NCBI GenBank assembly: GCA_044432805.1
Contig: JAWXUI010000004.1
Span: 1 to 56,011 of the forward strand
Direction: 5' to 3'
DNA from: Mycoplasmatota bacterium
GTDB lineage: Bacteria; Bacillota_I; Bacilli_A; RF39; UBA660
Length of the DNA: 56,011 nucleotides
Made by a program: the position numbers and the translations under genes. The stretch's first letter is position 1, and each line of letters opens with the position of its first letter. Below the pieces are notes generated by a model. That model saw only the letters and a program-made list of their open reading frames with translations. It was not told the DNA's origin and searched no databases. This document shows, piece by piece, positions 15,481-44,640 of this stretch.

Positions 15481-15557
<77 letters not shown>

Positions 15558-24149: not shown

Positions 24150-25166
24150 ATGGAAGAAACTTTAAAAAAACTATTTTTAGATTACAATTTAGGAAACGTA
24201 ATATCAGTAAAACAAATATTTGGTGGATTTATGAACAAAATGTATAAAGTTGTAACAAATGAAAAAACATTTGTTGTGAAAAAAATGAATCCAGAATTAA
24301 TGAAAAAAGAAGAAGTGAAAAATAATTTAATAACTTCTGAAAAGATATCTAATTTTGCAAATAAAAACAATATTCCCGTTTGTAGCGCTATGAGATTAGA
24401 AGAAAAATTTTTATTAGATTTTAATGATGGACACTATATGATTTTTAACTTTATCGAAGGAAAGACTTTAACAGATGAAGAAATAAAAATAGAACATTGT
24501 AAAAAGATAGGTATTGTTTTAGGACAAATACATTCTCTTGATTATAAATCACTAGGTTTAGAGCAAAGAGTAGTTACTTATAAAAGATTATATGAATGGG
24601 ATAAATATATACAACACGAAAATTTTAAACAAATGAAATATAGATCATTGTATTTAGAAAATTATGAAAAATTAAATATCATATTAGATAAAGCAAATAA
24701 ATGTTTTAATAGTACGAATAAAGATTTTGTTTTATGTCATAAAGATATGGATTCTAAAAATGTAATGTGGGAAAATAATAATCCCATAATTATAGATTGG
24801 GAATGTGCTGGTGTAGCTAGCCAATATAGAGATTTAATAGAAACAGCAATTAATTGGTCTGGATTTTTATCAAATAATTTTGATATAGAAAAATATGAAG
24901 CTGTGATAAATGGTTACAGAGAAGTAAAAGATATCGATGATATTAATTGGTATGATGTGGTTTATGGAAACTTAGTCGGGCGTATTGGATGGTTAAAATT
25001 CAATGTTGAACGTAGTTTAGGCATTGTATCAGATGATAAAGAAGAAATGGCTTTAGCGGAAAATGAAGTTGAAAAAACAATAATTGAAATAAATAATTAT
25101 ATTAAATTAATAGATACATTTAAAAATATAGATTTTGGAGGAGATTATGTCAGTAAAACAATTTAA
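24150..25166 (+). CDS. phosphotransferase (APH/CotS/homoserine-kinase-II fold)
   Basis: FVVKKM (Lys), VLCHKDMDSKNVMW (Brenner-like HxDxxxxN), IIIDWECAG...YRDL. Confidence 0.75.
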   Translation: MEETLKKLFLDYNLGNVISVKQIFGGFMNKMYKVVTNEKTFVVKKMNPELMKKEEVKNNLITSEKISNFANKNNIPVCSAMRLEEKFLLDFNDGHYMIFNFIEGKTLTDEEIKIEHCKKIGIVLGQIHSLDYKSLGLEQRVVTYKRLYEWDKYIQHENFKQMKYRSLYLENYEKLNIILDKANKCFNSTNKDFVLCHKDMDSKNVMWENNNPIIIDWECAGVASQYRDLIETAINWSGFLSNNFDIEKYEAVINGYREVKDIDDINWYDVVYGNLVGRIGWLKFNVERSLGIVSDDKEEMALAENEVEKTIIEINNYIKLIDTFKNIDFGGDYVSKTI

Positions 25167-25620: not shown

Positions 25621-25970
25621 ATGAATCAAAATAGTAAAATAGTTGTCACTACAGTATGTGATAACATGCAAATAGCAAAAACAATAATCGATGTTTTATT
25701 AAATAAAAAGTTAGTTGCTGGTTCGCAAATAACTGAAATAAAATCAAAATATTGGTGGCAAAATAAAATAGAAGAAAGCATTGAATATATAAAATAGACT
25801 TTAGAACAAATTTATCTTTGTATAAAAAAATAGAAGATGAGATTTTGAAAATTCACGATTATGATGTTTGTGAAATATCGTATTACGAAATTTTAGGGAA
25901 TACTAAGTTTTTAAACTGGATAGAACAAGAAACATCTGAAAGAAGTGGAAATAATGGAAATAGTATTTGA
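25621..25970 (+). pseudogene. cutA: cutA (divalent-cation tolerance protein) interrupted by a 1-nt frame change
   Basis: Frame A gives MNQNSKIVVTTVCDN...KSKYWWQNKIEESIEYIK then TAG (25795-97). The -1 frame continues IDFRTNLSLYKKIEDEILKIHDYDVCEISYYEILGNTKFLNWIEQE, matching the CutA C-terminal half. The shift maps to the AAAA at 25791-94. Confidence 0.7.
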
Positions 25971-26769
25971 TATTAACTTTATAAAAGAGGTTGCTAAAAC
26001 AATAGATGTTACATATATAAAACATAAACAATTTAGTGATGGTACAGATAGCAAAGTATTTTTATTAAACGATAAATACTTAATAAAAAGTAACTCTTTA
26101 GAACAGTTAAAAGCAGAAGTTGAATTTTTCAATATAAATACAAATGAAATTTTTCAACAAATAATTTATATAGAACCAAATTATCAATATGTTGTTTATC
26201 AATTTATTGATGGGGAAGTTATGAAAAAAGTTAAAAATCCAAAAGAAGTAATTAAAAAATTAATAGAAATAGTTTCTAATTATAAAATATATGAACATGA
26301 AAAGTTTGGTTATTTAGATGATTTAAAAGATACATGGGAAGACTTTTTATTAGATGAAGTGGAATATAGTAAGGATAATATAACTTCATATATTCCTAAT
26401 AATAGTATAGTAATTGAAGCAATTAACAAATTAAAAAATAAAAAATTTAACAAAAAATTATTACATGGTGATTTTGGAACACATAATTTTATTCAAACAG
26501 ATGAATTTGTTGGCGTTATTGATCCACAAAGTGTAATTGGGGATGAATTGTATGATTTGTTTTTTGCGATTGTGAGTAATACGGATTTATTAAATAGTTT
26601 AACAATTGATGAATTAATTAATATTGTTCCAAATAAAGAAGATAAAAATATTAATATTCTATTAATTGTCCTATATTCAAGAATATCAAGATGTTTAAAA
26701 TATCATCCGCAAGATATAAACATATATATGAAATATTATAATAATTTAATAAAAAAAATAGAAAAGTAA
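25954..26769 (+). CDS. aminoglycoside-phosphotransferase-fold kinase
   Basis: LLHGDFGTHNFI ... GVIDPQSVIGDELYDL is the canonical APH HGDxxxxN / IDxxxxxxGDxxxDL pattern. Confidence 0.7.
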   Translation: MEIVFDINFIKEVAKTIDVTYIKHKQFSDGTDSKVFLLNDKYLIKSNSLEQLKAEVEFFNINTNEIFQQIIYIEPNYQYVVYQFIDGEVMKKVKNPKEVIKKLIEIVSNYKIYEHEKFGYLDDLKDTWEDFLLDEVEYSKDNITSYIPNNSIVIEAINKLKNKKFNKKLLHGDFGTHNFIQTDEFVGVIDPQSVIGDELYDLFFAIVSNTDLLNSLTIDELINIVPNKEDKNINILLIVLYSRISRCLKYHPQDINIYMKYYNNLIKKIEK

Positions 26770-27742: not shown

Positions 27743-27763
27743 TATAAAAAAGAGGTGCTATAC

Positions 27764-29035
27764 ATGCAAAAAATGAGTTTTAATAAGAATAACGATTATC
27801 GAATTAATATGGCAATAAAGGGGATTAAAAGAGCTGAATTATTTTTATATGGAGATGAAATTCCTTTAATTAAAGAAAAACGAATCTTGTTATTTGATAA
27901 TGATAAAGAGGCTTGTGTAATTGAAATAGAAGATGTTATAGTAACTGAATTTAAAGATATAACTAAATCTTTAGTAATTTTAGACGGAACAGAAGATTTA
28001 GAATTATGGAAAGTTAATAGTTTAAAATATTTAAAAAGTATTGATAAGTCGTTTAATGAGTCTAGTAAAGTTGTTTTTGTTATTTTTAACGTAGTAGAAA
28101 ATTTAATTGAAAAAAGACATTTAATAGGTAAAAAAATAACTGAAACAAATAAAAAAATATTTGGACAAGTAAATACATTAAGCGAAATTAATTCTGGTTT
28201 TAATAACACATTATTTAATGTTAATGAAAAATTTATTATTAAAGTTTGTACAGATGAAAAGAATAAAGATTTGTTTTTAAAAGAGTATAATTTTTATTTG
28301 AAAAACAAAAACAATAAAAATATTCCAAAATTTTATAAATTTGATAATTCTAATTCAAAAGTACCTTATACTTATGAAATAATAGAAAAAGTAAATGGAA
28401 AGACATTATATTATTATTGGTATAAGATGAGTGAATTTGAAAGAAGAGAAATCATTAAAAAATTAATTTCTATTTTAAAAGAAATACATATGGAAAAAAC
28501 CATTAAAACTAATTGGAAGAATGAAATTAAAAATGATGTTTTAGAAAAAATAGAAGTTTGTAAAAAATATTTTTCTAGTGATGAATATGAAATAGTAATA
28601 TCTGCTATTAAAGTATATGATAAATATTTATTAGATGAAAATATTTATTCTGTAATTCACAATGATTTACATTTTGATAATATAATGTATGATGGAGAAA
28701 AATTAACTTTAATAGATTTTAATGATTATAAAAATGCCCCAATTGATTTTGAATTTAGATTATTATATATGTGTAAATATGAACCTTGGAAATGGGCGGA
28801 TATAGAAATGGATCCATTGCAAAAACCAATTGATTATCAAAACATATTTGATTATATAAAAGAATTTTATAGTGAATTAAATGAAATAAAATTTTTAGAA
28901 GAAAGAATGATTATATATAGAATATGGGAAAATACAAGAAATTTAGAAGATTATCACTCTTCCAAATTTATTAAAAAAATAGTTGATGATTCAATTTATT
29001 TATTGGAAGGAAGGTTTGAAAATGAAAAGATTTAA
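27764..29035 (+). CDS. ASCH-domain / APH-fold kinase fusion protein
   Basis: The N-terminal ~110 aa (ELFLYGDE..LIKEKR....ACVIEIEDVIVTEFKDIT.....DGTEDLELWK......VVFVIFNVVE) looks like ASCH/PF04266. The C-terminal part has VIHNDLHFDNIMYD ... LIDFND. Confidence 0.65.
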   Translation: MQKMSFNKNNDYRINMAIKGIKRAELFLYGDEIPLIKEKRILLFDNDKEACVIEIEDVIVTEFKDITKSLVILDGTEDLELWKVNSLKYLKSIDKSFNESSKVVFVIFNVVENLIEKRHLIGKKITETNKKIFGQVNTLSEINSGFNNTLFNVNEKFIIKVCTDEKNKDLFLKEYNFYLKNKNNKNIPKFYKFDNSNSKVPYTYEIIEKVNGKTLYYYWYKMSEFERREIIKKLISILKEIHMEKTIKTNWKNEIKNDVLEKIEVCKKYFSSDEYEIVISAIKVYDKYLLDENIYSVIHNDLHFDNIMYDGEKLTLIDFNDYKNAPIDFEFRLLYMCKYEPWKWADIEMDPLQKPIDYQNIFDYIKEFYSELNEIKFLEERMIIYRIWENTRNLEDYHSSKFIKKIVDDSIYLLEGRFENEKI

Positions 29036-29369
29036 ATTTTGTTTAATAGCATTATTGATAATATTTATAATTATAATATTTATTCCTAGAAATCAAAGTT
29101 CTAAAATAACAATAGAAGAAATGTATGAAATCATTGATGATGGAATAATTATAGATGTAAGAACATCTTCGGAATATGAGAGTTATAATTTATCAGATAG
29201 TATAAATATACCTTTAGATGATATTTATTCAGTAGAAGATATAATTATTGATAAAGATACACAAATATTTGTTTATTGCGCAACTGGTAATAGAAGTAGT
29301 CAAGCATATAATATCTTAATAAATTTAGAATATACAAATGTCTATGATATAGGTGGGATTTATAACTGA
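29022..29369 (+). CDS. membrane-anchored rhodanese-domain protein
   Basis: TM segment FCLIALLIIFIIIIFI. IIDVRTSSEYES and active-site loop CATGNRS. ATG 29022 follows GGAAGG. Confidence 0.8.
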   Translation: MKRFKFCLIALLIIFIIIIFIPRNQSSKITIEEMYEIIDDGIIIDVRTSSEYESYNLSDSINIPLDDIYSVEDIIIDKDTQIFVYCATGNRSSQAYNILINLEYTNVYDIGGIYN

Positions 29370-29374
29370 AGAAC

Positions 29375-29396
29375 AACAACATAAGTTGTTTTTTTG
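29375..29396 (+). terminator. terminator after rhodanese gene
   Basis: AACAAC-ataa-GTTGTT followed by T7. Confidence 0.8.
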
Positions 29397-29401
29397 TTGT
29401 T

Positions 29402-29429
29402 TTGTAAAAGACATTAAATATGATATAAT
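29402..29429 (+). promoter_or_regulatory. candidate promoter of the six-gene operon
   Basis: TTGTAA (29402-07), 16 nt spacer, TGaTATAAT extended -10 (TATAAT 29424-29). Confidence 0.5.
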
Positions 29430-29488
29430 TCAACCATGAAACCAAATAAAAAAGTATGAAAGAGGTGAAAGTCTAACTTGACTGTAAT

Positions 29489-30622
29489 ATGAAAACGATA
29501 GAAGAATATGTAGAAATGAGTAAAACAAAAGAAAATATAAGTGATGGTGGTAGTCCTGCCTATATCGTAAATGATAATTTAGTATTAGTAAAATATAGAG
29601 GTGAATCAAAGTATGGAATAGCTAGAGAATCAGCCGAAGCCGTAATGATAGCTGCAAATAATAAAAACAAACAAGGTGTAAGAACTCCTATTCATCATGA
29701 AGTGTACAGAACAATAGAAGGTAAATATAATGTATGTTATGTTTTGCAAGAAAGAGCCAAGGGAAGAAATTTAGATACTTATAGATGTAGTGAAAATGAC
29801 GTTGTAACACAAGAAACATTAATGCAAGAATTTCTCAATATGCCAAATTCTCATTTAGACAAATGTATATTAGATATTTGCTGTATTTTTAATATGGGAC
29901 TTGAACTGAAACCAAAAAATGTATTTTATGATAATAATATAGATAATGGTGGTTTTATATTTATTGATTTTTTAGAAGGTAATGAAAAGGAACTTGATTT
30001 TACCAAACCAAAAGATATAAATTTACTATTGTTATATTTGTTTTTTTTAAAAACCCCTGCTATTCCAAATTTTGGGAAGTTATATACCGAGGAACAAAAA
30101 CTAAATGGTGAACAATTTTCTCTTTCAATGAATACAAGAATCTTTAAAAGTTTAGAAAGAGTTATTCCTAATTTTGAAATTTATAAACGAGATATTTTAA
30201 GAACATATGATCAATTTAAGTTAAATAACTTAATTAGTAATAATGTTGTTTTTGAAAATCTGTCTTTAACAGAAGAAGAAATAATTCTTTTTGGAAAAAA
30301 ATGTAAAGATATAGCTATACTTTTAATTAAAGGATATCTTGATGGGACTATGTCTTTAGGGGACATATATGTAAATAAAATTAGGATTGATTCACATTTT
30401 AATTTTTTAGATACCAATTGGACTTTTAACAGATTAAATATTTTAAAAACAGAAGATTTTGAAGATTATTATGATTATAAATATAAAAACAATTCGATGT
30501 TAGAGGCTACTATTAAATTAATGATTGATGAAGCTCTAGAAACAAAGGACTATAATCTTACTAATATAAACTTTTATGATTTTTATAAAAAGATTTGTCA
30601 ATCTATGAAAAAGAAAAAATAA
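29489..30622 (+). CDS. hypothetical protein with atypical protein-kinase-like motifs
   Basis: VLVKY, GLELKPKNVFYD (29900-29920 region; Glu where HRD Asp is expected), GGFIFIDFLEG. Poor RBS at the listed ATG. Confidence 0.45.
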   Translation: MKTIEEYVEMSKTKENISDGGSPAYIVNDNLVLVKYRGESKYGIARESAEAVMIAANNKNKQGVRTPIHHEVYRTIEGKYNVCYVLQERAKGRNLDTYRCSENDVVTQETLMQEFLNMPNSHLDKCILDICCIFNMGLELKPKNVFYDNNIDNGGFIFIDFLEGNEKELDFTKPKDINLLLLYLFFLKTPAIPNFGKLYTEEQKLNGEQFSLSMNTRIFKSLERVIPNFEIYKRDILRTYDQFKLNNLISNNVVFENLSLTEEEIILFGKKCKDIAILLIKGYLDGTMSLGDIYVNKIRIDSHFNFLDTNWTFNRLNILKTEDFEDYYDYKYKNNSMLEATIKLMIDEALETKDYNLTNINFYDFYKKICQSMKKKK

Positions 30623-30656
30623 TAAATTATATATAAATAAGAAGGGTGAAAAAAAT

Positions 30657-31721
30657 ATGGAAAAAATAAAACCACAAGTATTACAAAAAGGAGATAAAGT
30701 TGCAATAGTTAGTTTATCTTCTGGATCATTGGGTGAAGAAAAAAGAATTCACAAATATATAATAGCAAAGAAAAGATTAGAAGATGAATTTGGATTAGAA
30801 GTTGTAACAACGCAAAACGCCTTGAAAGGTAAGCAATATATATATGAACATCCTGAAAAAAGGGCAGAAGATTTAATGGACGCCTTTAAAGATAAGAGTA
30901 TAAAAGCAATCATATGTGCTGCAGGCGGAGATGATACAATCAGATTATTACCGTATATAGATTATGATATCATTAAAAATAATCCTAAAATTTTTATGGG
31001 ATATTCAGATAGTACAGTTAACCATTTTATGATGAATAAAGCAAATTTAGTTTCTTTTTATGGACCATGTATAACTGTTGAATTTGGCGAATATGTCAAA
31101 ATGTTTGACTATACAAAAGAGGCAATATTTAATATCTTATTTCAGTGTAGTGATGAACTTGAAATAAAATCAAGTGAATATTGGACAGATGATCATGTTT
31201 CATGGGAAGAATCAAATATAAATATAGGAAAACAATTAAAAAAAGAAAAATACGGTTATGAAGTTATTCAAGGAAGAGGATATATAGAAGGAGAAATATT
31301 AGGTGGATGTATAGATGTTTTTCCTATGATGGTTGGAACAGGAATATGGCCAACACTAGATGAATGGAAGAATAAAATATTATTTATAGAAACAAGCGAA
31401 GAAAAAATTTCACCTACTTTATTATTATATTATTTAAGAAATTTAGGGGCCCAAGGGATTTTTAATGTCGTTAATGGTATAGTCGTAGGAAAACCAGAAG
31501 ATGAAGCTTATTATCATGAATATAAAGATATATATTTAAAAGTATTAAAAGAATTTAATTGTGAACAGTTGCCTATATTATATAATATTAATGTTGGGCA
31601 TGCTAAACCAACTGGAATACTACCTTTAGGTATAAAAGTATCAATCGATTTTGACAATAAAAAATTAATGTTAATTGAATCACCAGTTAAAAATGTTGAT
31701 TATAATAAAACAAAAAAATAA
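30657..31721 (+). CDS. S66 family LD-carboxypeptidase / MccF-like serine peptidase
   Basis: GDKVAIVSLSSG, AAGGDDT, GYSDSTV (nucleophile Ser) and C-terminal NVGHAKP His. 354 aa. Confidence 0.8.
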   Translation: MEKIKPQVLQKGDKVAIVSLSSGSLGEEKRIHKYIIAKKRLEDEFGLEVVTTQNALKGKQYIYEHPEKRAEDLMDAFKDKSIKAIICAAGGDDTIRLLPYIDYDIIKNNPKIFMGYSDSTVNHFMMNKANLVSFYGPCITVEFGEYVKMFDYTKEAIFNILFQCSDELEIKSSEYWTDDHVSWEESNINIGKQLKKEKYGYEVIQGRGYIEGEILGGCIDVFPMMVGTGIWPTLDEWKNKILFIETSEEKISPTLLLYYLRNLGAQGIFNVVNGIVVGKPEDEAYYHEYKDIYLKVLKEFNCEQLPILYNINVGHAKPTGILPLGIKVSIDFDNKKLMLIESPVKNVDYNKTKK

Positions 31722-31756
31722 ATTAATTGCATTTGCTAATTAAATGAGGTGATAAA

Positions 31757-32881
31757 ATGAATAATAGAAAAGTAAATAATAATCCTTGCGATATGATAAA
31801 ATTTACTAGGAAAAATCTAGTTATAAAAATAAATAATGCGCAAAAGAAAAATAAAAATTTAGAAGACATTAATATAGATGAAATCATAAATGATATAGTA
31901 TCTTTATGGGGGGATATTTTAAAACGAGATTTTAATGATTATCCTTCGCTAGTTGAAAATATGACTATCTGGACTAAACAATATCTTATAGGAGCTATTA
32001 ATAAAGGTTATATAAATGATGCTAATTTATATATAATGTTAAATGAATTTGCAAAAGGTATAGAAAATTTTGAGATAATACCTAGTGGTCCATTTTTTGG
32101 GTTACACAATATGGCAACAAAGACAATTAAATTACAAGCTAGCCTAGATGAATCACTTATTAGACATTGTTTTTTTCATGAAATATCTCATATGCTGACA
32201 ACTGAAATAGGAGTAGATGTAAATAGTGAATTAGAGAAAAACAGAATATCGTTAAAAATTCCATCAGAACAGTCTAAAAAACCAGGTGCTATGGTAATTC
32301 ATGATGGTAATATAATGTGTGATACTAGATATTTTATGCAGTATAAATCTTTTTTAAGAGAATGTATAGCAGAGCATATGGCTTGTGACATTGGAGAAAA
32401 TTTTAAAGAAAAAAGAACAGTAGTTCCTCAAAGTTGTTTAACATCAGATTGGGTAACTCCTTTTAACAGAACATATCAAGAAATTTGTGAAAATTTTATT
32501 ACAACATTAGATTTTTTAAGCGCCGATAATTGTAGAAGCAAGATGAAGGAACTTTCAATATTATCTACAGACCCTGAAAATATTATACTTTCACAGATAT
32601 ATAATTCATTTAAATCAAAAAAACCTAATTCCAGTAGTGATCTAGAATTGCGAAAAGATTTAAAATATATAGGAGACCAAATTTTTGTAAAATATCAGGA
32701 CAATATAAATGTTCCATCAACAACTGAATTAAAAAAATATAGGGAAATTGTAGAAAAATATAAGGGCATAGAAAAAGTAACTATCAATTCTCGTAGCGAT
32801 ATTAACTCGAGAATAAGAATATTTAAGCGTAGTGTCATACAAATTATTCCTAGAAAAAAACATAATAAAAAAATAAAATAA
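31757..32881 (+). CDS. hypothetical protein with HExxH (HEISH) motif
   Basis: CFFHEISHM followed about 55 aa later by ECIAEHM. Basic C-terminal tail. No family recognised. Confidence 0.45.
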   Translation: MNNRKVNNNPCDMIKFTRKNLVIKINNAQKKNKNLEDINIDEIINDIVSLWGDILKRDFNDYPSLVENMTIWTKQYLIGAINKGYINDANLYIMLNEFAKGIENFEIIPSGPFFGLHNMATKTIKLQASLDESLIRHCFFHEISHMLTTEIGVDVNSELEKNRISLKIPSEQSKKPGAMVIHDGNIMCDTRYFMQYKSFLRECIAEHMACDIGENFKEKRTVVPQSCLTSDWVTPFNRTYQEICENFITTLDFLSADNCRSKMKELSILSTDPENIILSQIYNSFKSKKPNSSSDLELRKDLKYIGDQIFVKYQDNINVPSTTELKKYREIVEKYKGIEKVTINSRSDINSRIRIFKRSVIQIIPRKKHNKKIK

Positions 32882-32912
32882 AAATAGTAATAAAATAGAT
32901 AGGTGGCAACAT

Positions 32913-33611
32913 ATGGAACATAGTATTTTAATATTGTTTTCAGGAGGAAAAGATTCATTTCTAACCACACTAAAATATTTAGATAAAGGTTATAAAGTTT
33001 TTTTAATTAATTATGATAATGGTTGTTCCTTAGAATCAAAAAACGTAACATATAATATTAATAAAATAATAAAAAAATATGGAACTGATAAAGTAGTTAA
33101 TTTAGGAATAATAAATACGTCTTTTATTTGGAGAGAATTTATAGAAAAATATTACAATTATACTCCTAAATATATAATTGAAACTTTTGGTAATGTTCCA
33201 ATATCACAATTTAATTGTTTATCTTGTAGAGTAGCGATGTATGTGGCAACTATAATTATTTGTAATCAAAAAAAGATAAAATTTGTAGCAGATGGAGCGA
33301 GAAAAAGTCAGTCGTTTGCTATTGAACAAGATATATTAATAAATCAATTTGAATCGTTTTTTAAACAATATAGCATCAAAATTGAGTATCCATTGTTAAA
33401 TGCAATAAGTGATTTTGATATAAAAAATGAAATTTTAGCTAGAGGTTTTGTTCCGAAAACATTAGAATCACAATGTTTATTAGGTATTCCAATTGGTGAG
33501 CAAAAGTTATCAGAAGAAGTTATTTTTTCTATTTCAAAAGTTTTTGATTTGTATATAAAACAAAAAGCTCAATATATTATAATTAAATATAAAAAATTAA
33601 AATTTGATTGA
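32913..33611 (+). CDS. PP-loop (adenine nucleotide alpha-hydrolase superfamily) ATPase
   Basis: ILILFSGGKDSFLT PP-loop at the N-terminus. Internal CLSCR pair. 232 aa. Confidence 0.65.
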   Translation: MEHSILILFSGGKDSFLTTLKYLDKGYKVFLINYDNGCSLESKNVTYNINKIIKKYGTDKVVNLGIINTSFIWREFIEKYYNYTPKYIIETFGNVPISQFNCLSCRVAMYVATIIICNQKKIKFVADGARKSQSFAIEQDILINQFESFFKQYSIKIEYPLLNAISDFDIKNEILARGFVPKTLESQCLLGIPIGEQKLSEEVIFSISKVFDLYIKQKAQYIIIKYKKLKFD

Positions 33612-33661
33612 AATTTAGTATAAGAAAATATTTACAATAAAGTAAAGGAGTTTAATGACTT

Positions 33662-34555
33662 ATGGATAATATATTAAAAAGCATTTTACATGTTCAAAAA
33701 AATAGCAAACATGTAACTATTAAAGAAGAAAAACTTAATGAAATAATAAAACAAATAAATGTTGTAAATTGTAAACATTGGCTCGAAAGTAATCCATTTG
33801 ATATACTATCACTTGATATAAAGGATTTAGTTCAAGTGTTACTTATTTATCATTCAGTTGGTTTTTGCTATTGGAAAGAGCCTAAATGGGTAGTTGAAAT
33901 AGATAAAGTCAAATATGATGGTGGATTTGCCATGCTTGGATTGCTAGTAAATAGATTTAAAAAAGATACTTCAAAAATTAGTGATACTGAGTTTTTAAAA
34001 ATGGTAAAAGCTGATAACGATATTCCTTTATTAGAAGATAGATTAAATAATTTGAGCAAAATAGAAGATGATTTTTATCAAGAAATTAAAAATATAAAAA
34101 ATGACATAGAATTATTTAATTACATTATAAACAAATATAAATATTTTAAAGATGAATCTGTTTATAATAATGAAAAGATATATTTTTATAAATTAGCGCA
34201 ATTGCTTGTTTCTGATATTCTACATATCAGAGAAATAAAAGAAAACATTATTGTTGATTACACGAATTTAATTGGATGTGCTGATTATAAAATTCCACAA
34301 GTGTTAAATTGTTATGGAATATTAGCATATAGTAAAGAACTAAATAAAATTATAGAAAATAAACAAGAAATTGAATCAAACTCTATTTATGAAATAGAAA
34401 TTAGGGCCAATACTTTAGCGGTTATTAATGAAATTTATATTAAGACTAATAAAATTATGCCAAGGATACAAATAAACGATTTTATTTGGTTGATGGGGCA
34501 AGATAAAACAAAAATGACTAAGTTATATCATCGTACTTATACAAAATGCTATTAA
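33662..34555 (+). CDS. DUF2419 / Qng1-like queuosine-salvage family protein (tentative)
   Basis: YHSVGFCYW and CADYKIPQVL..YGIL.YS resemble the conserved blocks I recall for DUF2419 (..NFCFW.., FADYRVPQVL). About 300 aa as expected. Confidence 0.55.
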   Translation: MDNILKSILHVQKNSKHVTIKEEKLNEIIKQINVVNCKHWLESNPFDILSLDIKDLVQVLLIYHSVGFCYWKEPKWVVEIDKVKYDGGFAMLGLLVNRFKKDTSKISDTEFLKMVKADNDIPLLEDRLNNLSKIEDDFYQEIKNIKNDIELFNYIINKYKYFKDESVYNNEKIYFYKLAQLLVSDILHIREIKENIIVDYTNLIGCADYKIPQVLNCYGILAYSKELNKIIENKQEIESNSIYEIEIRANTLAVINEIYIKTNKIMPRIQINDFIWLMGQDKTKMTKLYHRTYTKCY

Positions 34556-34602
34556 TCAAAATGTATAAATGCAGTTAATTAAATAGTCAAGAGGTAAAAT
34601 AA

Positions 34603-35094
34603 ATGAAAGAAAAAAGAGATTTATATAATAATCAATTAGAATTAAGTGGGAAAACATACTTTAAAGGAGACAAAATTCCAAAAAATTATTATCCAATGGT
34701 CGTAATGGTCGCAATTCAAAATTCAAATGGAGAATTTTTAATGCAAAAAAGAGTTGAGGCTAAAGGAGGAGACTGGGGTATTACTGGTGGACATCCAAAA
34801 CACGGAGAAACTCCCAAACAAGGAATTATTACTGAAGTAAAAGAGGAATTAGGTATAGACATTAGCAATCATAAAATTATCGAATTTCAAAGAGGATGCG
34901 ATGGAAAAGATTGTTATATAATGTATTATACAAAAATAGATTTAGATGTAAATGAATTAGTAATTCAATTAGATGAACTAACAGAGGTTAAATGGTTTAG
35001 TATTGAAAGGTTGCAACAAATGGTTGATACTGGAGAGTTGAATAACGATCAAGTAGAGTTTTTTATTAAATGTATTGAATATTTAAATAATTAA
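34603..35094 (+). CDS. Nudix hydrolase
   Basis: Nudix box GGHPKHGETPKQGIITEVKEELGI (Gx5Ex7REUxEExGU-like). Confidence 0.85.
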   Translation: MKEKRDLYNNQLELSGKTYFKGDKIPKNYYPMVVMVAIQNSNGEFLMQKRVEAKGGDWGITGGHPKHGETPKQGIITEVKEELGIDISNHKIIEFQRGCDGKDCYIMYYTKIDLDVNELVIQLDELTEVKWFSIERLQQMVDTGELNNDQVEFFIKCIEYLNN

Positions 35095-35291
35095 AAAGTG
35101 ATGTGAGAAAATTAATCACAGATGTTAATTTAAAAAATAATTGGTTAAAATTTCAAAATAAAAAACACATATAAAAAGCTTATAGAAAAAAGAGGTTAGT
35201 TAAAAAGAAATTGCTGTTTTTGTAAAAAAACTAAATGCAATTTTTAGTTTAGATTTATTGTGTACAATCAATTATTTTCTGTTTTGTTATT

Positions 35292-35705
35292 TTACTTAAG
35301 TATCTTGTAACTTAAGCTAACTTCATCTTCTTTTATGTATTTGAGATGGAGTTTTTTTGTTATTTCTATTCCACCTTTTTGCCAAGAAGAATATGGAACA
35401 CAATAAAAGATGTTTGAAATTTTTTCTTTTGTTTTTAAATCCAGTTTAATATCAGAAGGTTTTGAAAATTCCCACCCATTATCTGTTAATATAATTTTAA
35501 ATAACAATTTAAAATTTTCTACCCCTAATTCTTTTTTTTTATTAAATATTCTTACTACAGAATCTGGTTTGTATTTATCTACAATGAATAATAACATTAA
35601 TTTAGTTTCTCTAAAATATAAAGTTAAAGAACAGTTTTTATCTTCGAATTTACCAATCACAGTATCCATTTCTACTATACCGTTGCTGGACTTTAAAAAA
35701 TAGGT
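35292..35705 (-). mobile_element. IS30-family transposase remnant (N-terminally truncated, degenerate)
   Basis: DTVIGK...LTL..RETK, ILTDNGWEF and FYCVPYSSWQKGGIE match the IS30 DDE core (D.V.G / TDNG.EF / PY..W.RG..EN). The HTH half is missing and stops lie upstream. Confidence 0.7.
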
Positions 35706-36034
35706 AAAATATGCTATAATTATATATGAGATTTAATTTGGATTATACTAATTAAAAAACTAAATAAAAGAAGACAGTAAATAATTATGGATATGAAACA
35801 AAAATTTGAAATGCGTAAGAAAAAAGAGAAGAAATAGAAACTGGATAAAGTTGTAACAAAACGAATATCAATTGGCAAATGGGGAATAAAGGATGAATTG
35901 CTATAAACCCAGTATTTATAAGGTGATGTTCAAAAAAGTTTTTACATCTTTGAGTTAGAAAATGAGCTGAATTGCAAATTAGAGCTTTGATCAAATAAAA
36001 CGCAAATGTGTACATCTTGTTTGATGAATAATGA

Positions 36035-36236
36035 TATTTATCTTGCAAAAATTTAATAGCAGAGTTATTTGATGTGACAAGAAGTACAATAACTGGACAT
36101 ATTAGTTATATATTTAAGGAGGGTGAATCGCATTAGCAAAAGCACCATCGAAAAAACCAATATTGCTTTTTCAGATAAGCCAGTAAAAATATATAATTTA
36201 GATATTATATTAGTCTTAATCCATTGTAAGCACTAG
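36035..36236 (+). pseudogene. RhuM-family gene remnant (multiple frame breaks)
   Basis: YLSCKNLIAELFDVTRSTITGHISYIFKEGE then a stop. A second frame gives SDKPVKIYNLDIILV. Both resemble conserved RhuM N-terminal blocks (..AELF.V...TI..H..NIF.EGEL, ..YNLD.II.VGYRV). Confidence 0.55.
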
Positions 36237-36294
36237 TGTTGGTAAAATAAAAATTTTTATAAAATTATAATAATATTTGTTGGAGGTAGGTAAA

Positions 36295-37140
36295 ATGAAT
36301 AAAGTAAAAAAATATGGTGAAATATTGATGATTTGGCCATGTAATTTGAATTGCTATTATTGTCTGAAAAACGAAATTAAAGATAAAAATGAAGATAGCT
36401 ATGTAAATACACATTTTTTAAAATGGAAAAATTTCGAAAAATTTATCAATACCTTAAAAGAACAAGATATTGATACAATATATTTATCAAGTATAAATAC
36501 AGAACCTATGTTATATAAATATTTAAAAGAGTTAATATTATATCTAAAAAATCAAAAATTAAAAGTTGGAATCAGAACAAATGGAGTATTACTTAGTCAG
36601 GAAAAAAATATAAATATATTAAGACTATTAGATGAAAAAATTTCAATTTCTTTGCAGGGAATACATTATGATACATTTGTAAATATAACAGGAACTAATT
36701 TATTTTTTGATGTAGAAAAATTGTTAATTAAATTAAGAGAAAAAAATTTGAAGGTACGATTTACTTTTGTTGTAAATGTAGAAAATTATCGAGAATTAGA
36801 TAGTTTAATTCAATTATTAGAAAAATATAGTGAAAATATTAAGTATTTGCAAATTAGAAAAATATATAAATATTATGAAGCAAATCAAAAAGATTTTTGC
36901 GATGATATGAATAAATACTTTGATGTTAAAGAGTTATTAGAAAAAAAATATAAAAAAATTGAAGGATTTTATGAAAGTGTAGGTGTACAGACTAGTAAAA
37001 AATTAAAAATATATTTTTGGGATGATGTGTTCAAAAAAGAAAGTGTACAATCACTGAACTATTTTGTAGATGGGACTATATCTGACAATACATTGTTACT
37101 ACAATGTTATAATGAAGAAAGAAAAAAGGAGAATTTTTAA
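36295..37140 (+). CDS. radical SAM protein
   Basis: WPCNLNCYYC (CX3CX2C, 36340-36363), NTEPML (GGEP-like), IRTNG. ATG 36295 follows GGAGGTAGG. Confidence 0.75.
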   Translation: MNKVKKYGEILMIWPCNLNCYYCLKNEIKDKNEDSYVNTHFLKWKNFEKFINTLKEQDIDTIYLSSINTEPMLYKYLKELILYLKNQKLKVGIRTNGVLLSQEKNINILRLLDEKISISLQGIHYDTFVNITGTNLFFDVEKLLIKLREKNLKVRFTFVVNVENYRELDSLIQLLEKYSENIKYLQIRKIYKYYEANQKDFCDDMNKYFDVKELLEKKYKKIEGFYESVGVQTSKKLKIYFWDDVFKKESVQSLNYFVDGTISDNTLLLQCYNEERKKENF

Positions 37141-37141
37141 G

Positions 37142-37930
37142 ATGGAAAAAGAGTTGGCAATAAAAAATTATTATAATAATGAATACAATGAAGAAGATAG
37201 GTTGAAAAATGGCTGCGATAATAGACACAAAATAGAATTTGAATATAAGAAAAAAGTCATATGTGAAGAGGTATTAAAGAAAAATAAGCCTTGTAATATA
37301 TTAGATTTAAGTTGTGGTACGGGAATATATGCAATAGAATTAGCGAAGTTAGGTCATTATGTAGAAGCTAGTGATTTAGTAGAAGAGCATATAGAAATAT
37401 TGAATAAAAAAGTATTAGATTTTAATTTGAGAGAACACATTAGTACATCTTCAAGTAATATTTTGAATATAGATTATGGAAAAAAACAATTTGATGTAGT
37501 TTTACTTGGTGGCGCAATTTATCATTTGCATTCATATGAAGATAAAAAAAAGGCAGTAAACAATGCTAAAAAATATTTGAAAAAAGATGGCATATTGATT
37601 ATTGATTTTTTGCCGAAATTGCACGGAAAGATTCAAAATATTATTTTAGATAGCGGTATATTAGATAATGAAGAAGAACCAACAATAGAAATTCATAATG
37701 ATATATTCAGTTATAATACTGTAGAAGAAATGAAATCAATTATAGTAGAAAAAGAATATGATATGAAATTTTTAACAACAGATTTTATATCAAAATTTAT
37801 CAAGGATGATATAAATAATTTGAGCGATGAACAATTGAATAAATGGATTCAACTGTTAGAAAAGGTCAATGAAAACTTTAATTTAGTTGATATTGGTGAA
37901 CATGCATTGGTAATTTGCACAAAAATATGA
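37142..37930 (+). CDS. class I SAM-dependent methyltransferase
   Basis: ILDLSCGTGIYAIELAKLGH (motif I), VEASDL (motif II acidic), DVVLLGGAIYHL. ATG lies 1 nt after the upstream stop with an AAGGAG RBS. Confidence 0.8.
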   Translation: MEKELAIKNYYNNEYNEEDRLKNGCDNRHKIEFEYKKKVICEEVLKKNKPCNILDLSCGTGIYAIELAKLGHYVEASDLVEEHIEILNKKVLDFNLREHISTSSSNILNIDYGKKQFDVVLLGGAIYHLHSYEDKKKAVNNAKKYLKKDGILIIDFLPKLHGKIQNIILDSGILDNEEEPTIEIHNDIFSYNTVEEMKSIIVEKEYDMKFLTTDFISKFIKDDINNLSDEQLNKWIQLLEKVNENFNLVDIGEHALVICTKI

Positions 37931-38047: not shown

Positions 38048-38980
38048 ATGGACATGTATCAAAAAAGAAAATTACGTAAAGAAAAAAAAGAAAATGTTGT
38101 AGTTGATAAAATAGAAGAAAGAAAAACAAATATTAACTGGTATCCTGGTCATATGGCGAAAACTAAAAGGTTGATAAGCGAAATGCGTGACTTAATAGAC
38201 GTTGTTTATGAAGTAGTAGATGCTAGAATACCTTATTCATCAAAATTAAAAGAAATAGATGAACTTATTTATAATAAACCTAAAATTATAGTAATGACTA
38301 AAATGGATTTATGTGATAAATATGAAACAAAAAAATGGATGAATTATTATGAAAAACAAGGAAGTAAAGTTATAGGTGTAGATTTAGAAAATAACTTTAA
38401 TATGAATGGATTAATTAATTTAACAAAAGAATTAATGAATGAAAGAAATGAAAAAAGAACAAACAAAGGATTGAGTATTAGAAAAACAAGAGTTTTAATT
38501 ATAGGCGTTCCAAATGCAGGAAAATCAACTTTAATAAATCGTTTAGTTGGTAAAAAAACAGTTAATACAGGTAATAAACCAGGGGTTACAAAAAGTTTAA
38601 GTTGGATTAGAATATCATCAGACTTAGAATTATTAGATTCACCAGGTATATTATGGCCTAAATTAGATGAAGGAAACATTGGTTTTAATTTAGCGTCTTT
38701 TACAGCAATAAAAGAAGAAATTTTACCTCTTGATCATGTCGCGGCATATATATTAAAAAATCTTTCACTATACTATCCAAACATTTTAAAAGAAAGATTT
38801 GGAATAGAAGAATATGATGAAGAAGAAATAATAGAAGCATATGATATTATTGGTAAAAAAAGAGGCTGCTTAATTAAAGGCGGGGAAGTAGATTACGATA
38901 AAGTAATAAATATAATAATAAATGATGTAAAAAATGGAGCAATAAAAAATATAACATTTGACAGGTTTTTAAATGACTAA
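38048..38980 (+). CDS. rbgA: ribosome biogenesis GTPase A (YlqF/RbgA)
   Basis: NWYPGHMAKTKR. Circularly permuted GTPase order (MTKMDL ... GVPNAGKST ... DSPG). Confidence 0.9.
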   Translation: MDMYQKRKLRKEKKENVVVDKIEERKTNINWYPGHMAKTKRLISEMRDLIDVVYEVVDARIPYSSKLKEIDELIYNKPKIIVMTKMDLCDKYETKKWMNYYEKQGSKVIGVDLENNFNMNGLINLTKELMNERNEKRTNKGLSIRKTRVLIIGVPNAGKSTLINRLVGKKTVNTGNKPGVTKSLSWIRISSDLELLDSPGILWPKLDEGNIGFNLASFTAIKEEILPLDHVAAYILKNLSLYYPNILKERFGIEEYDEEEIIEAYDIIGKKRGCLIKGGEVDYDKVINIIINDVKNGAIKNITFDRFLND

Positions 38981-44482: not shown

Positions 44483-44640
44483 TTTGAAAAAATCAAATAT
44501 TTACCGTAGACAGTAGGGACTAGTTAGTTTAATAATCCTACCGAGGAACTTTAAAAAGATTTTACTTTTAAAAAGTTTATTCCCTACGGTTTTATCGTAG
44601 GGAATTTTTATTTACGGTATTACACGAAATAAGGAGGTGT
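44483..44640 (+). promoter_or_regulatory. L10 (rplJ) leader, ribosomal-protein autoregulatory attenuator
   Basis: Structured 5' UTR: CCGTAGACAGTAGGGAC...CCTACCGAGG. Terminator-like ATTCCCTACG-gttttat-CGTAGGGAAT plus T-run (44579-44610) just before the RBS, as in Firmicute L10 leaders. Confidence 0.65.

Follow-up and report, generated by a model that had tools for sequence, protein, structure and literature searches.

A six-gene array in an uncultured Bacillota bacterium is probably a lineage-specific juxtaposition of accessory genes rather than a conserved pathway

The 56-kb contig JAWXUI010000004.1 (24% GC), called the window here in its entirety, belongs to an uncultured spore-forming Bacillota bacterium with a gene-dense, strand-biased genome. 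It carries a run of six closely spaced genes, g1 to g6 (Table 1), predicted to encode a kinase-fold protein, an S66 serine peptidase, a zincin-like HExxH protein, a PP-loop ATPase, a member of the DUF2419/Qng1 family and a Nudix hydrolase. A first-pass annotation, made from the letters of the contig, read these genes as one pathway acting on a modified nucleoside or peptidyl-nucleotide instead of six unrelated genes. The novel six-gene pathway, as first proposed, is not supported: co-localisation of the homologues was tested and not found, and the array appears lineage-specific because its six families do not co-localise elsewhere.

Layout of the array

The six coding sequences lie on one strand with gaps of 34, 35, 31, 50 and 47 bp from g1 to g6, confirming the 31–50-bp spacing reported at first pass. 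Folding gives no stable hairpin in any of the five gaps, again as first described, and Shine–Dalgarno (SD)-like AGGTG/GGAG motifs stand upstream of each of g2–g6, where ribosome-binding sites had been noted; g1 has no well-spaced SD, with AGAGGTG 21 nt upstream of its ATG. Assemblies of three other sequencing runs show the same gene order at 99.99–100% identity, which shows that the array is neither a chimera nor an assembly artefact.

Of the proposed boundary signals, the 'clean terminator' upstream is overstated. The hairpin at about 29369–29396 has a folding energy of −8.6 kcal/mol (z = −1.1), 21 of 200 shuffled sequences fold equally well, and a terminator scan of 28500–36500 returned zero sites. 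The TTGTAA-16-TG-TATAAT promoter survives in part: the site is present, but the array region, which is AT-rich, holds 66 promoter-like sites against 71 expected from shuffles, with no enrichment, and the proposed site has equals near g2 and g3, at 30595 (just before g2) and 31559 (inside the 3′ end of g2). At the far end of the array, the decayed IS30 copy is borne out by a match of the truncated ORF to the NCBIfam model transpos_IS30 (1.4e-12; model positions 138–240 of 267), and tblastn with the fragment returns annotated IS30 transposases on plasmids.

An Rfam search of 29000–36400 returned no riboswitch or other element, even at E ≤ 1, and control of the array by a preQ1 or purine riboswitch was set aside. 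Across the whole window, Rfam matches a ribosomal protein L10 leader (44486–44619, 85 bits), one tRNA (15481–15554) and nothing else. The window holds 53 open reading frames (ORFs) of at least 100 aa, 49 of them on the plus strand; its same-strand gaps have a median of 65 bp, and 45% are 50 bp or shorter.

Table 1. Coordinates of the array, its boundaries and related features; positions are those of the window unless another locus is named.
Feature	Position	Strand	Description
g1	29489–30622	+	377 aa; atypical protein-kinase-like (predicted), helical C-terminal half, no Pfam family
g2	30657–31721	+	354 aa; S66 serine peptidase, MccF clade
g3	31757–32881	+	374 aa; putative zincin, very small uncharacterised family
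g4	32913–33611	+	232 aa; PP-loop ATP pyrophosphatase, YcfA-like, three family-invariant Cys
g5	33662–34555	+	297 aa; DUF2419/Qng1 (queuosine-5′-monophosphate N-glycosylase family)
g6	34603–35094	+	163 aa; Nudix hydrolase
Hairpin and U-run, 3′ of rhodanese gene	29365–29405	+	Weak, AT-rich; possible terminator
Promoter-like TTGTAA-16-(TG)TATAAT	29402–29429	+	10/12 match, extended −10
Truncated IS30 transposase fragment bounding the array	35292–35669	−	125-aa ORF
APH-type phosphotransferase	24150–25166		Interleaved with GNAT and MBL-fold hydrolase genes
APH-type phosphotransferase	25945–26769		Interleaved as above
ASCH–APH fusion	27755–29035		Interleaved as above
YlqF/RbgA-like GTPase, window	38048–38980		Upstream cargo: the island of the window
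YlqF/RbgA-like GTPase, locus L005	11658–12572		Upstream cargo: g4–TudS pair
YlqF/RbgA-like GTPase, locus L108	9101–9982		Upstream cargo: g1 homologue, Bro-N and serine recombinase

Families and predicted activities of the six products

The g5 product scores 111 bits against the Pfam Q_salvage profile (cut-off 25; E = 1e-31) and matches StQng1 of Sphaerobacter thermophilus (7u07) at 2e-26 over residues 56–296. These sequence matches identify it as a genuine DUF2419/Qng1 protein, as first assigned, and as a new member of a described family. In Qng1, whose family also includes human QNG1, the HhH (helix–hairpin–helix) motif carries Asp231, Lys233 and Arg80 bind the phosphate, W48, Y93, W94 and W299 form a queuine-specific pocket and Asp298 lies on the guanine face (PMC9881137). 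Like Qng1, g5 has the catalytic Asp and the phosphate-binding basic residues: D231, K233, K199, W302 and the C-terminal Tyr323 are kept and R80 is replaced by Lys, with the matching residues of g5 found in CADYK (D208, K210), FYK (K177), EPKW (Lys for Arg80) and the terminal Tyr297. Unlike Qng1, it is changed in the cyclopentenediol pocket, where Y93 is Gly, W94 is Phe and W299 is Asp; on the guanine face D298 is Asn, with an Asp one position later, and the alignment to 7u07 leaves out the W48 region. The same pocket motifs occur in one representative stand-alone relative from gut Bacilli.

Bacterial neighbourhoods of Qng1 have previously been surveyed for transporters (PMC11130926). Neither a queuosine transporter nor a tRNA-guanine transglycosylase (TGT) gene was found in the 56-kb window. 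The array resembles the Clostridioides difficile queK-qrtT-queL cluster (PMC11477304, PMC11130926) in being a Firmicute cluster with a predicted queuine-freeing hydrolase; however, this hydrolase is Qng1 in the window and the nucleoside hydrolase QueK in C. difficile, and the window has no energy-coupling factor (ECF) S-component and no preQ1 riboswitch was found there. The radical-SAM gene of the window, considered for kinship with the queuine lyase QueL, gives generic matches only.

The g6 product matches Pfam NUDIX at 1.5e-16 and has a near-canonical Nudix box, G62-x5-E-x7-(T)-E-V-x-E-E-x-G-I, intact bar an Arg-to-Thr change. Its other similarity is to generic MutT and NADH-pyrophosphatase proteins, and we assign it, in agreement with the first reading, as a predicted generic Nudix hydrolase and a new member of that superfamily.

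The description of g4 as an SGGKDS PP-loop ATPase (residues 10–15) is confirmed and can be sharpened to YcfA-like. Its best PDB match is YcfA (9kq6), at 8e-7 with the single sequence and 3e-12 with the family profile over residues 4–185; QueC, ThiI, TtuA and MnmA align at the PP-loop N terminus only. Pfam PP-loop matches are weak, and the weakly matching Pfam family is DUF7411, for which a literature search found no paper mentioning it. In 6-thioguanine biosynthesis, YcfA adenylates GTP at C6 and then attaches L-cysteine; its Gln129, Glu134 and Gln135 serve catalysis and guanine activation, Lys169 and Lys180 contact the GTP phosphates, Glu183 serves ATP/Mg and Tyr128 positions L-Cys (PMC12494993). 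g4 is of the same size as the Erwinia amylovora enzyme and shares its PP-loop and catalytic residues: YcfA D19, Q129, E134, K169, K180 and E183 are kept, and Q135 is nearly invariant in the family. Across YcfA and 31 g4-family members including g4, Q133, E138, K171, K182 and E185 are invariant and Q139 nearly so.

There are also differences from YcfA. The two proteins are about 26% identical, R18 is Lys and Tyr128 is Ser (Ser132) in g4, and three Cys that are invariant in the g4 family (C102, C105 and C188, as CxxC...C) are absent from YcfA. By analogy, this arrangement may represent a [4Fe-4S] cluster site of the kind found in TtuA-type thiolases. By its sequence, g4 appears closest to YcfA and related to the YcfA–YcfC system without being a member, as the partner and one of the defining residues are missing. 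The family to which it belongs, YcfA-like PP-loop proteins, comprises more than 200 sequence clusters and is uncharacterised.

Both S66 domains are recognised in g2 (Pfam N domain 8e-35, C domain 7e-26), and the earlier suggestion that this protein is nearer MccF than LdcA is upheld by the ranking of PDB matches: BA3275, a 'MccC family' protein, at 1e-100, Escherichia coli MccF at 1e-39 and LdcA-type chains at 7e-12 to 3e-4. The NCBIfam LdcA model gives 54 bits against a cut-off of 378. Ser117 (GYSDST), Glu245 and His315 (GHAKP) fall at MccF-like positions, and, as in MccF, which confers self-immunity to microcin C7, the two domains are separated by a long segment, here of 74 aa and holding two Trp (W176 and W183). 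Sequence scores thus place g2 clearly in the MccF clade of S66, not with LdcA. It differs from MccF in that its nearest solved relative is the uncharacterised BA3275 rather than validated MccF; no microcin C (McC)-type biosynthetic genes lie near it, and its substrate is a prediction only.

This assignment raises the question of immunity or detoxification against a microcin-C-like peptidyl- or aminoacyl-nucleotide antibiotic, in which g2 would be central, g3 and g1 would be auxiliary inactivators and g4–g6 would clear nucleotide debris. Membership of the MccF clade, with its Ser/Glu/His motifs, is what such a role would call for, and resistance-type families (three APH, GNAT and MBL) abound in the neighbouring island. 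However, MccF-like paralogues commonly occur in Firmicutes that have no McC cluster (several structures come from Bacillus anthracis and Listeria), the window has no mccA/B-like genes, no S66 gene adjoins the homologues of g1, g3, g4 or g5 in the loci examined, and PADLOC finds no defence system. We consider an immunity function very improbable. A defence system was also set aside, the PADLOC output consisting of weak QatC/QueC matches on the PP-loop protein and one generic Nudix match.

For g1, sequence searches of Pfam, NCBIfam and PDB gave no match, and its family comprises 37 homologue clusters. An AlphaFold2 (AF2) model built on the homologue alignment reached a predicted local distance difference test (pLDDT) score of 94.9, and Foldseek matched its N-terminal half to the kinase domains of MK2, GCN2 and lanthipeptide synthetases (E ~1e-4, probability 1.0). 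The modelled protein has a bilobal kinase fold; its template-modelling (TM) scores against protein kinases are 0.3–0.4 despite the probability of 1.0, because the C-terminal half is extra. The catalytic loop LELKPKN...IDF parallels HRDLKPEN...DFG, a mapping made by motif and not by structural superposition, and E139-x-K141-x-x-N144 ... D160 is invariant in the family, with Glu139 where the catalytic Asp is expected. The kinase-like spacing and the Glu in place of the HRD Asp, both remarked on at first pass, are confirmed. Phosphotransfer is uncertain because the β3 Lys (Lys35 of VLVKY) is replaced in several family members. The family, for which there is no Pfam model, also has a conserved PNF..RRWILR in a helical extension some 200 aa long.

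The HEISH protein g3 was of no family recognised at first pass, and it indeed has no Pfam family and no relative in a PDB search that included a profile search. Its family is tiny, with 2 clusters in 5.8e9 proteins and 35 representatives in 1.8e9. HEISH spans residues 141–145 and ExxAE residues 202–206; H141, E142, H145, E202, E206, N237, Y240 and Q241 (HExxH, ExxAE and NxxYQ) are invariant, with 25 members aligned for HExxH and ExxAE. Some members give weak, sub-threshold matches to SprT-like, YgjP and M78 proteins. The AF2 model, from a two-sequence alignment, has a pLDDT of 39 and is unusable, and from its motifs we regard g3 as a putative zincin, an uncharacterised zinc hydrolase. A phage or prophage origin of the array was rejected: tblastn of g1 and g3 against 50,697 phage records gave no match, and PHROGs matches were generic (S66, Nudix and QueC-like).

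Neighbourhoods of homologues and the surrounding island

Gene neighbourhoods were surveyed from homologues of g1, g3, g4 and g5. The g1 homologues occupy five unrelated contexts, none with other array families; they include positions after DNA-repair genes, in a DUF4186/LysR interval, in a dUTPase/YkuD interval and beside Bro-N and a recombinase. Of the g3 homologues, just one is on a long contig; it lies among housekeeping genes and has no shared neighbours. Two further homologues are on short, uninformative contigs. Two candidate links were discarded: a 488-aa neighbour upstream of a g3 homologue, considered as a hidden g1 relative, has no similarity to g1, and a contig-end ORF after a g1 homologue (L010), considered as the start of an S66 gene, encodes a signal-peptide protein.

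The g4 homologues have a recurrent partner. In 16 of 18 loci, a TudS/DUF523-type gene lies directly downstream, at a spacing of 12–144 bp or overlapping (L005 8001–9235; L007–L009 8001–9223; L093–L097; L099–L104). The TudS-coupled loci include the 74%-identical g4 homologue of a sister metagenome-assembled genome (MAG), and the partner genes keep the CPE and SPSC motifs. A metagenome scan for g4 relatives gave only 13 loci, because one of its search patterns was a generic PP-loop. The g4 family and TudS form a conserved two-gene module in which g4 relatives are translationally coupled to a gene of the type of the thiouracil/4-thio-UMP desulfidase TudS; the usual partner is thus a TudS-type protein and not YcfC as in the YcfA system. 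In the window, DUF2419 follows g4 instead of TudS, and no TudS-like gene or remnant was detected (best tblastn E = 0.38). Conversely, none of the 18 loci has a Nudix, DUF2419, S66, g1 or g3 gene near the g4 homologue. The PP-loop neighbour goes unmentioned in the published TudS/RudS accounts that we looked at. In one Clostridia-type lineage (L007–L009, 5592–13964), the g4–TudS pair stands between QueH (epoxyqueuosine reductase) and TGT genes, with RhuM/ParB fragments intervening; this setting, the sole other link of the PP-loop family to queuosine genes, is probably a coincidence.

These comparisons bear on whether the array could make a free modified purine antimetabolite resembling 6-thioguanine. 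In such a scheme, g4 would convert GTP to a 6-substituted GTP (a thio or amino-acid adduct), g6 would reduce it to the monophosphate and g5 would release the base, leaving g1–g3 for processing or self-protection. Both known 6-thioguanine clusters, ycf and the staphylococcal tgs, pair a YcfA-type enzyme with Nudix hydrolases, as the array does, and g5 would add an N-glycosidase for nucleoside monophosphates (NMPs); for tgs, the enzymatic steps still await confirmation (PMC7994395). g4, closest to YcfA, also keeps the ATP/GTP-binding and catalytic residues. Unlike these clusters, however, the array has no pyridoxal-phosphate (PLP) C-S lyase (YcfC/TgsA), efflux pump or HAD phosphatase, and a profile scan of the window ORFs of at least 100 aa outside the downstream ribosomal-protein/rpoBC block turned up neither a PLP C-S lyase or desulfurase nor an efflux gene. 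Further, the Tyr128 that positions L-Cys in YcfA is Ser in g4, g5 has the motifs of a representative stand-alone DUF2419 protein from related MAGs and is not a diverged paralogue, close g4 relatives belong to the TudS module, and the gene combination occurs in no other genome examined. We regard this scheme as a long shot. Very doubtful, too, is a g4–g6–g5 route to a free purine base in which g4 would replace the O6 of GTP, perhaps with the help of a [4Fe-4S] cluster, and a Qng1-type N-glycosidase would have been recruited from queuine salvage.

Relatives of g5 are found at no fewer than 553 loci in GTDB species representatives, as stand-alone genes in hundreds of gut Bacilli MAGs; the best 80 of these at least 553 loci were analysed, and nearly all come from gut MAGs labelled Bacilli, Tenericutes, Erysipelotrichaceae or Clostridia. 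Among the best 80, g1 and g3 occur in none, S66 genes are distant (five cases, 6–8 kb off) and a g4-like stretch appears once, fragmented and 3.5 kb away (L082). De novo clustering of neighbours yielded no family in more than 12 of the 80. The nearest relative of g5 (L013, 65% identical) lies between a dCMP deaminase gene and a gene for an unrelated HExxH protein.

The array itself lies inside a variable island of about 16 kb (~21.7–38 kb) of miscellaneous small-molecule enzymes with housekeeping genes on both sides: RNase III, ThrRS, sporulation genes, RNase J and cardiolipin synthase on one, and the mrnC-rlmB-sigH-nusG-rpl-rpoBC block on the other. Its content includes three APH-type kinases (one fused to ASCH), GNAT, an MBL-fold hydrolase, a lone PRAI and a membrane-anchored rhodanese; with g1, four kinase-fold genes fall within 7 kb, from 24150 onward. 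The rhodanese (28983–29369) was considered as sulfur donor of g4 and set aside; it has an N-terminal hydrophobic anchor, and a hairpin and promoter-like site lie between the two genes.

Downstream of the array, IS30 and RhuM-like debris are followed by a radical-SAM/methyltransferase pair. The debris beyond the IS30 fragment is a short plus-strand frame at about 36040–36110, LFDVTRSTITGHISYIFKEGES, which resembles the RhuM-family N-terminal motif by eye only and would be a second piece of mobile-element debris. The radical-SAM gene (36277–37140, CxxxCxxC) overlaps a class-I methyltransferase gene (pair 36277–37930), and its matches are generic (MoaA/W-cofactor maturase 1e-18, PADLOC pVip 8e-15), far below curated cut-offs. 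Upstream of an orthologous YlqF/RbgA-like GTPase gene (49–55% identity), accessory genes differ in three genomes, and this flank may be an insertion hot spot. Accessory genes beside the same GTPase gene in two other genomes fit a variable region better than a dedicated operon.

Readings of the array and their meaning

We think it probable, though well short of certain, that the six genes are a lineage-specific juxtaposition of independent accessory genes, possibly co-transcribed, and not a conserved pathway. The genes are real, and one promoter may well serve them all. Several lines of evidence support this reading. First, g1, g3 and g4 lack conserved synteny with the other array genes, and the neighbours of g5 vary. 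Second, the packing of the array is ordinary for a window with this strand bias and these gap lengths. Third, the surroundings mix small-molecule-modifying enzymes with mobile debris. Fourth, the pocket motifs of g5 equal those of its stand-alone relative. Finally, the interval searched with Rfam holds no riboswitch or other element.

As independent genes, the six would have the following roles. g5 would be the Qng1 of the organism, converting queuosine-5′-monophosphate to queuine and ribose-5-phosphate in queuosine salvage. g6 is predicted to be a nucleoside-diphosphate-X pyrophosphatase and may trim nucleotides to the 5′-monophosphate form that g5 uses. g4 would act on a free nucleotide, purine or pyrimidine, adenylating a carbonyl group and exchanging its oxygen, probably for sulfur; it would normally be paired with a TudS-type [4Fe-4S] partner, which is absent from the window. 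g2 would be an MccF-type serine peptidase cleaving aminoacyl-nucleotide-like amides, g1 an atypical kinase-fold protein and g3 a putative zinc hydrolase.

Other observations weigh against a mere juxtaposition. Co-transcription is plausible because no internal hairpins were found. Four of the six products belong to nucleotide or nucleotide-conjugate families, a closer theme than genes drawn at random would show. The neighbourhood survey started from four of the six genes, g1, g3, g4 and g5. A biosynthetic or immunity cluster may be confined to a single lineage, so that missing synteny is no proof of missing function. The ycf and tgs clusters do combine a YcfA-type enzyme with Nudix hydrolases (PMC7994395). 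And among the best 80 g5 loci the Nudix gene is the only recurrent array neighbour, present within 5 kb in 8 of 80 and directly downstream in 3 (L016, L033 and L080); a histidine-phosphatase cluster occurs in 7 of 80, and about 15 of 80 have one or the other on the same strand no more than 5 kb downstream.

The last of these observations favours a partial unit that recycles modified nucleotides from RNA turnover, in which g6 would generate 5′-monophosphates from modified nucleoside di- or triphosphates or conjugates, g5 would free queuine or a related purine as the modified base, thio- or oxo-nucleotides of the same pool would be the substrates of g4, and g1–g3 would be bystanders. g5 keeps the Qng1 catalytic set for a nucleoside-5′-monophosphate (PMC9881137), and TudS, the usual partner of the g4 family, recycles 4-thio-UMP (PMC10611767). 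Yet the Nudix association holds at only about 10% of loci, with Nudix proteins 29–38% identical to g6; g4 stands beside DUF2419 nowhere else, the one copy in the best 80 loci being the distant fragment at L082; and the window has no TudS. On balance we judge a recycling unit unlikely, but it is an alternative to be taken seriously. A phosphohydrolase that makes or consumes the 5′-monophosphate substrate of Qng1 is chemically sensible, and a link of g5 and g6, perhaps with g4, in modified-nucleotide handling is possible. The nucleotide/nucleoside theme of the first-pass annotation, which four of six product families share, survives in that form only.

If the juxtaposition that we favour is correct, the array carries a caution: where a genome is small, AT-rich and strand-biased, close same-strand packing of genes with a common biochemical flavour is weak evidence for a pathway. 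Were the improbable g4–g6–g5 route true instead, it would provide the first Qng1-family enzyme in antimetabolite biosynthesis and suggest a dedicated step for releasing the base, for which 6-thioguanine biosynthesis has as yet no assigned counterpart, and would tie the enzymology of queuine salvage to the making of thiopurine-type antimetabolites by gut bacteria.

The analysis also yields useful by-products for the families concerned. Foremost is the conserved PP-loop/TudS module. The MccF-like branch of S66 gains a member in g2. The families of g1 and g3 are small and uncharacterised; that of g1 has a kinase fold and an invariant catalytic-loop Glu, and that of g3 is a tiny HExxH family. Finally, stand-alone Qng1 genes prove to be widespread among MAGs of gut Bacilli, in some cases with a Nudix or histidine-phosphatase gene after them.

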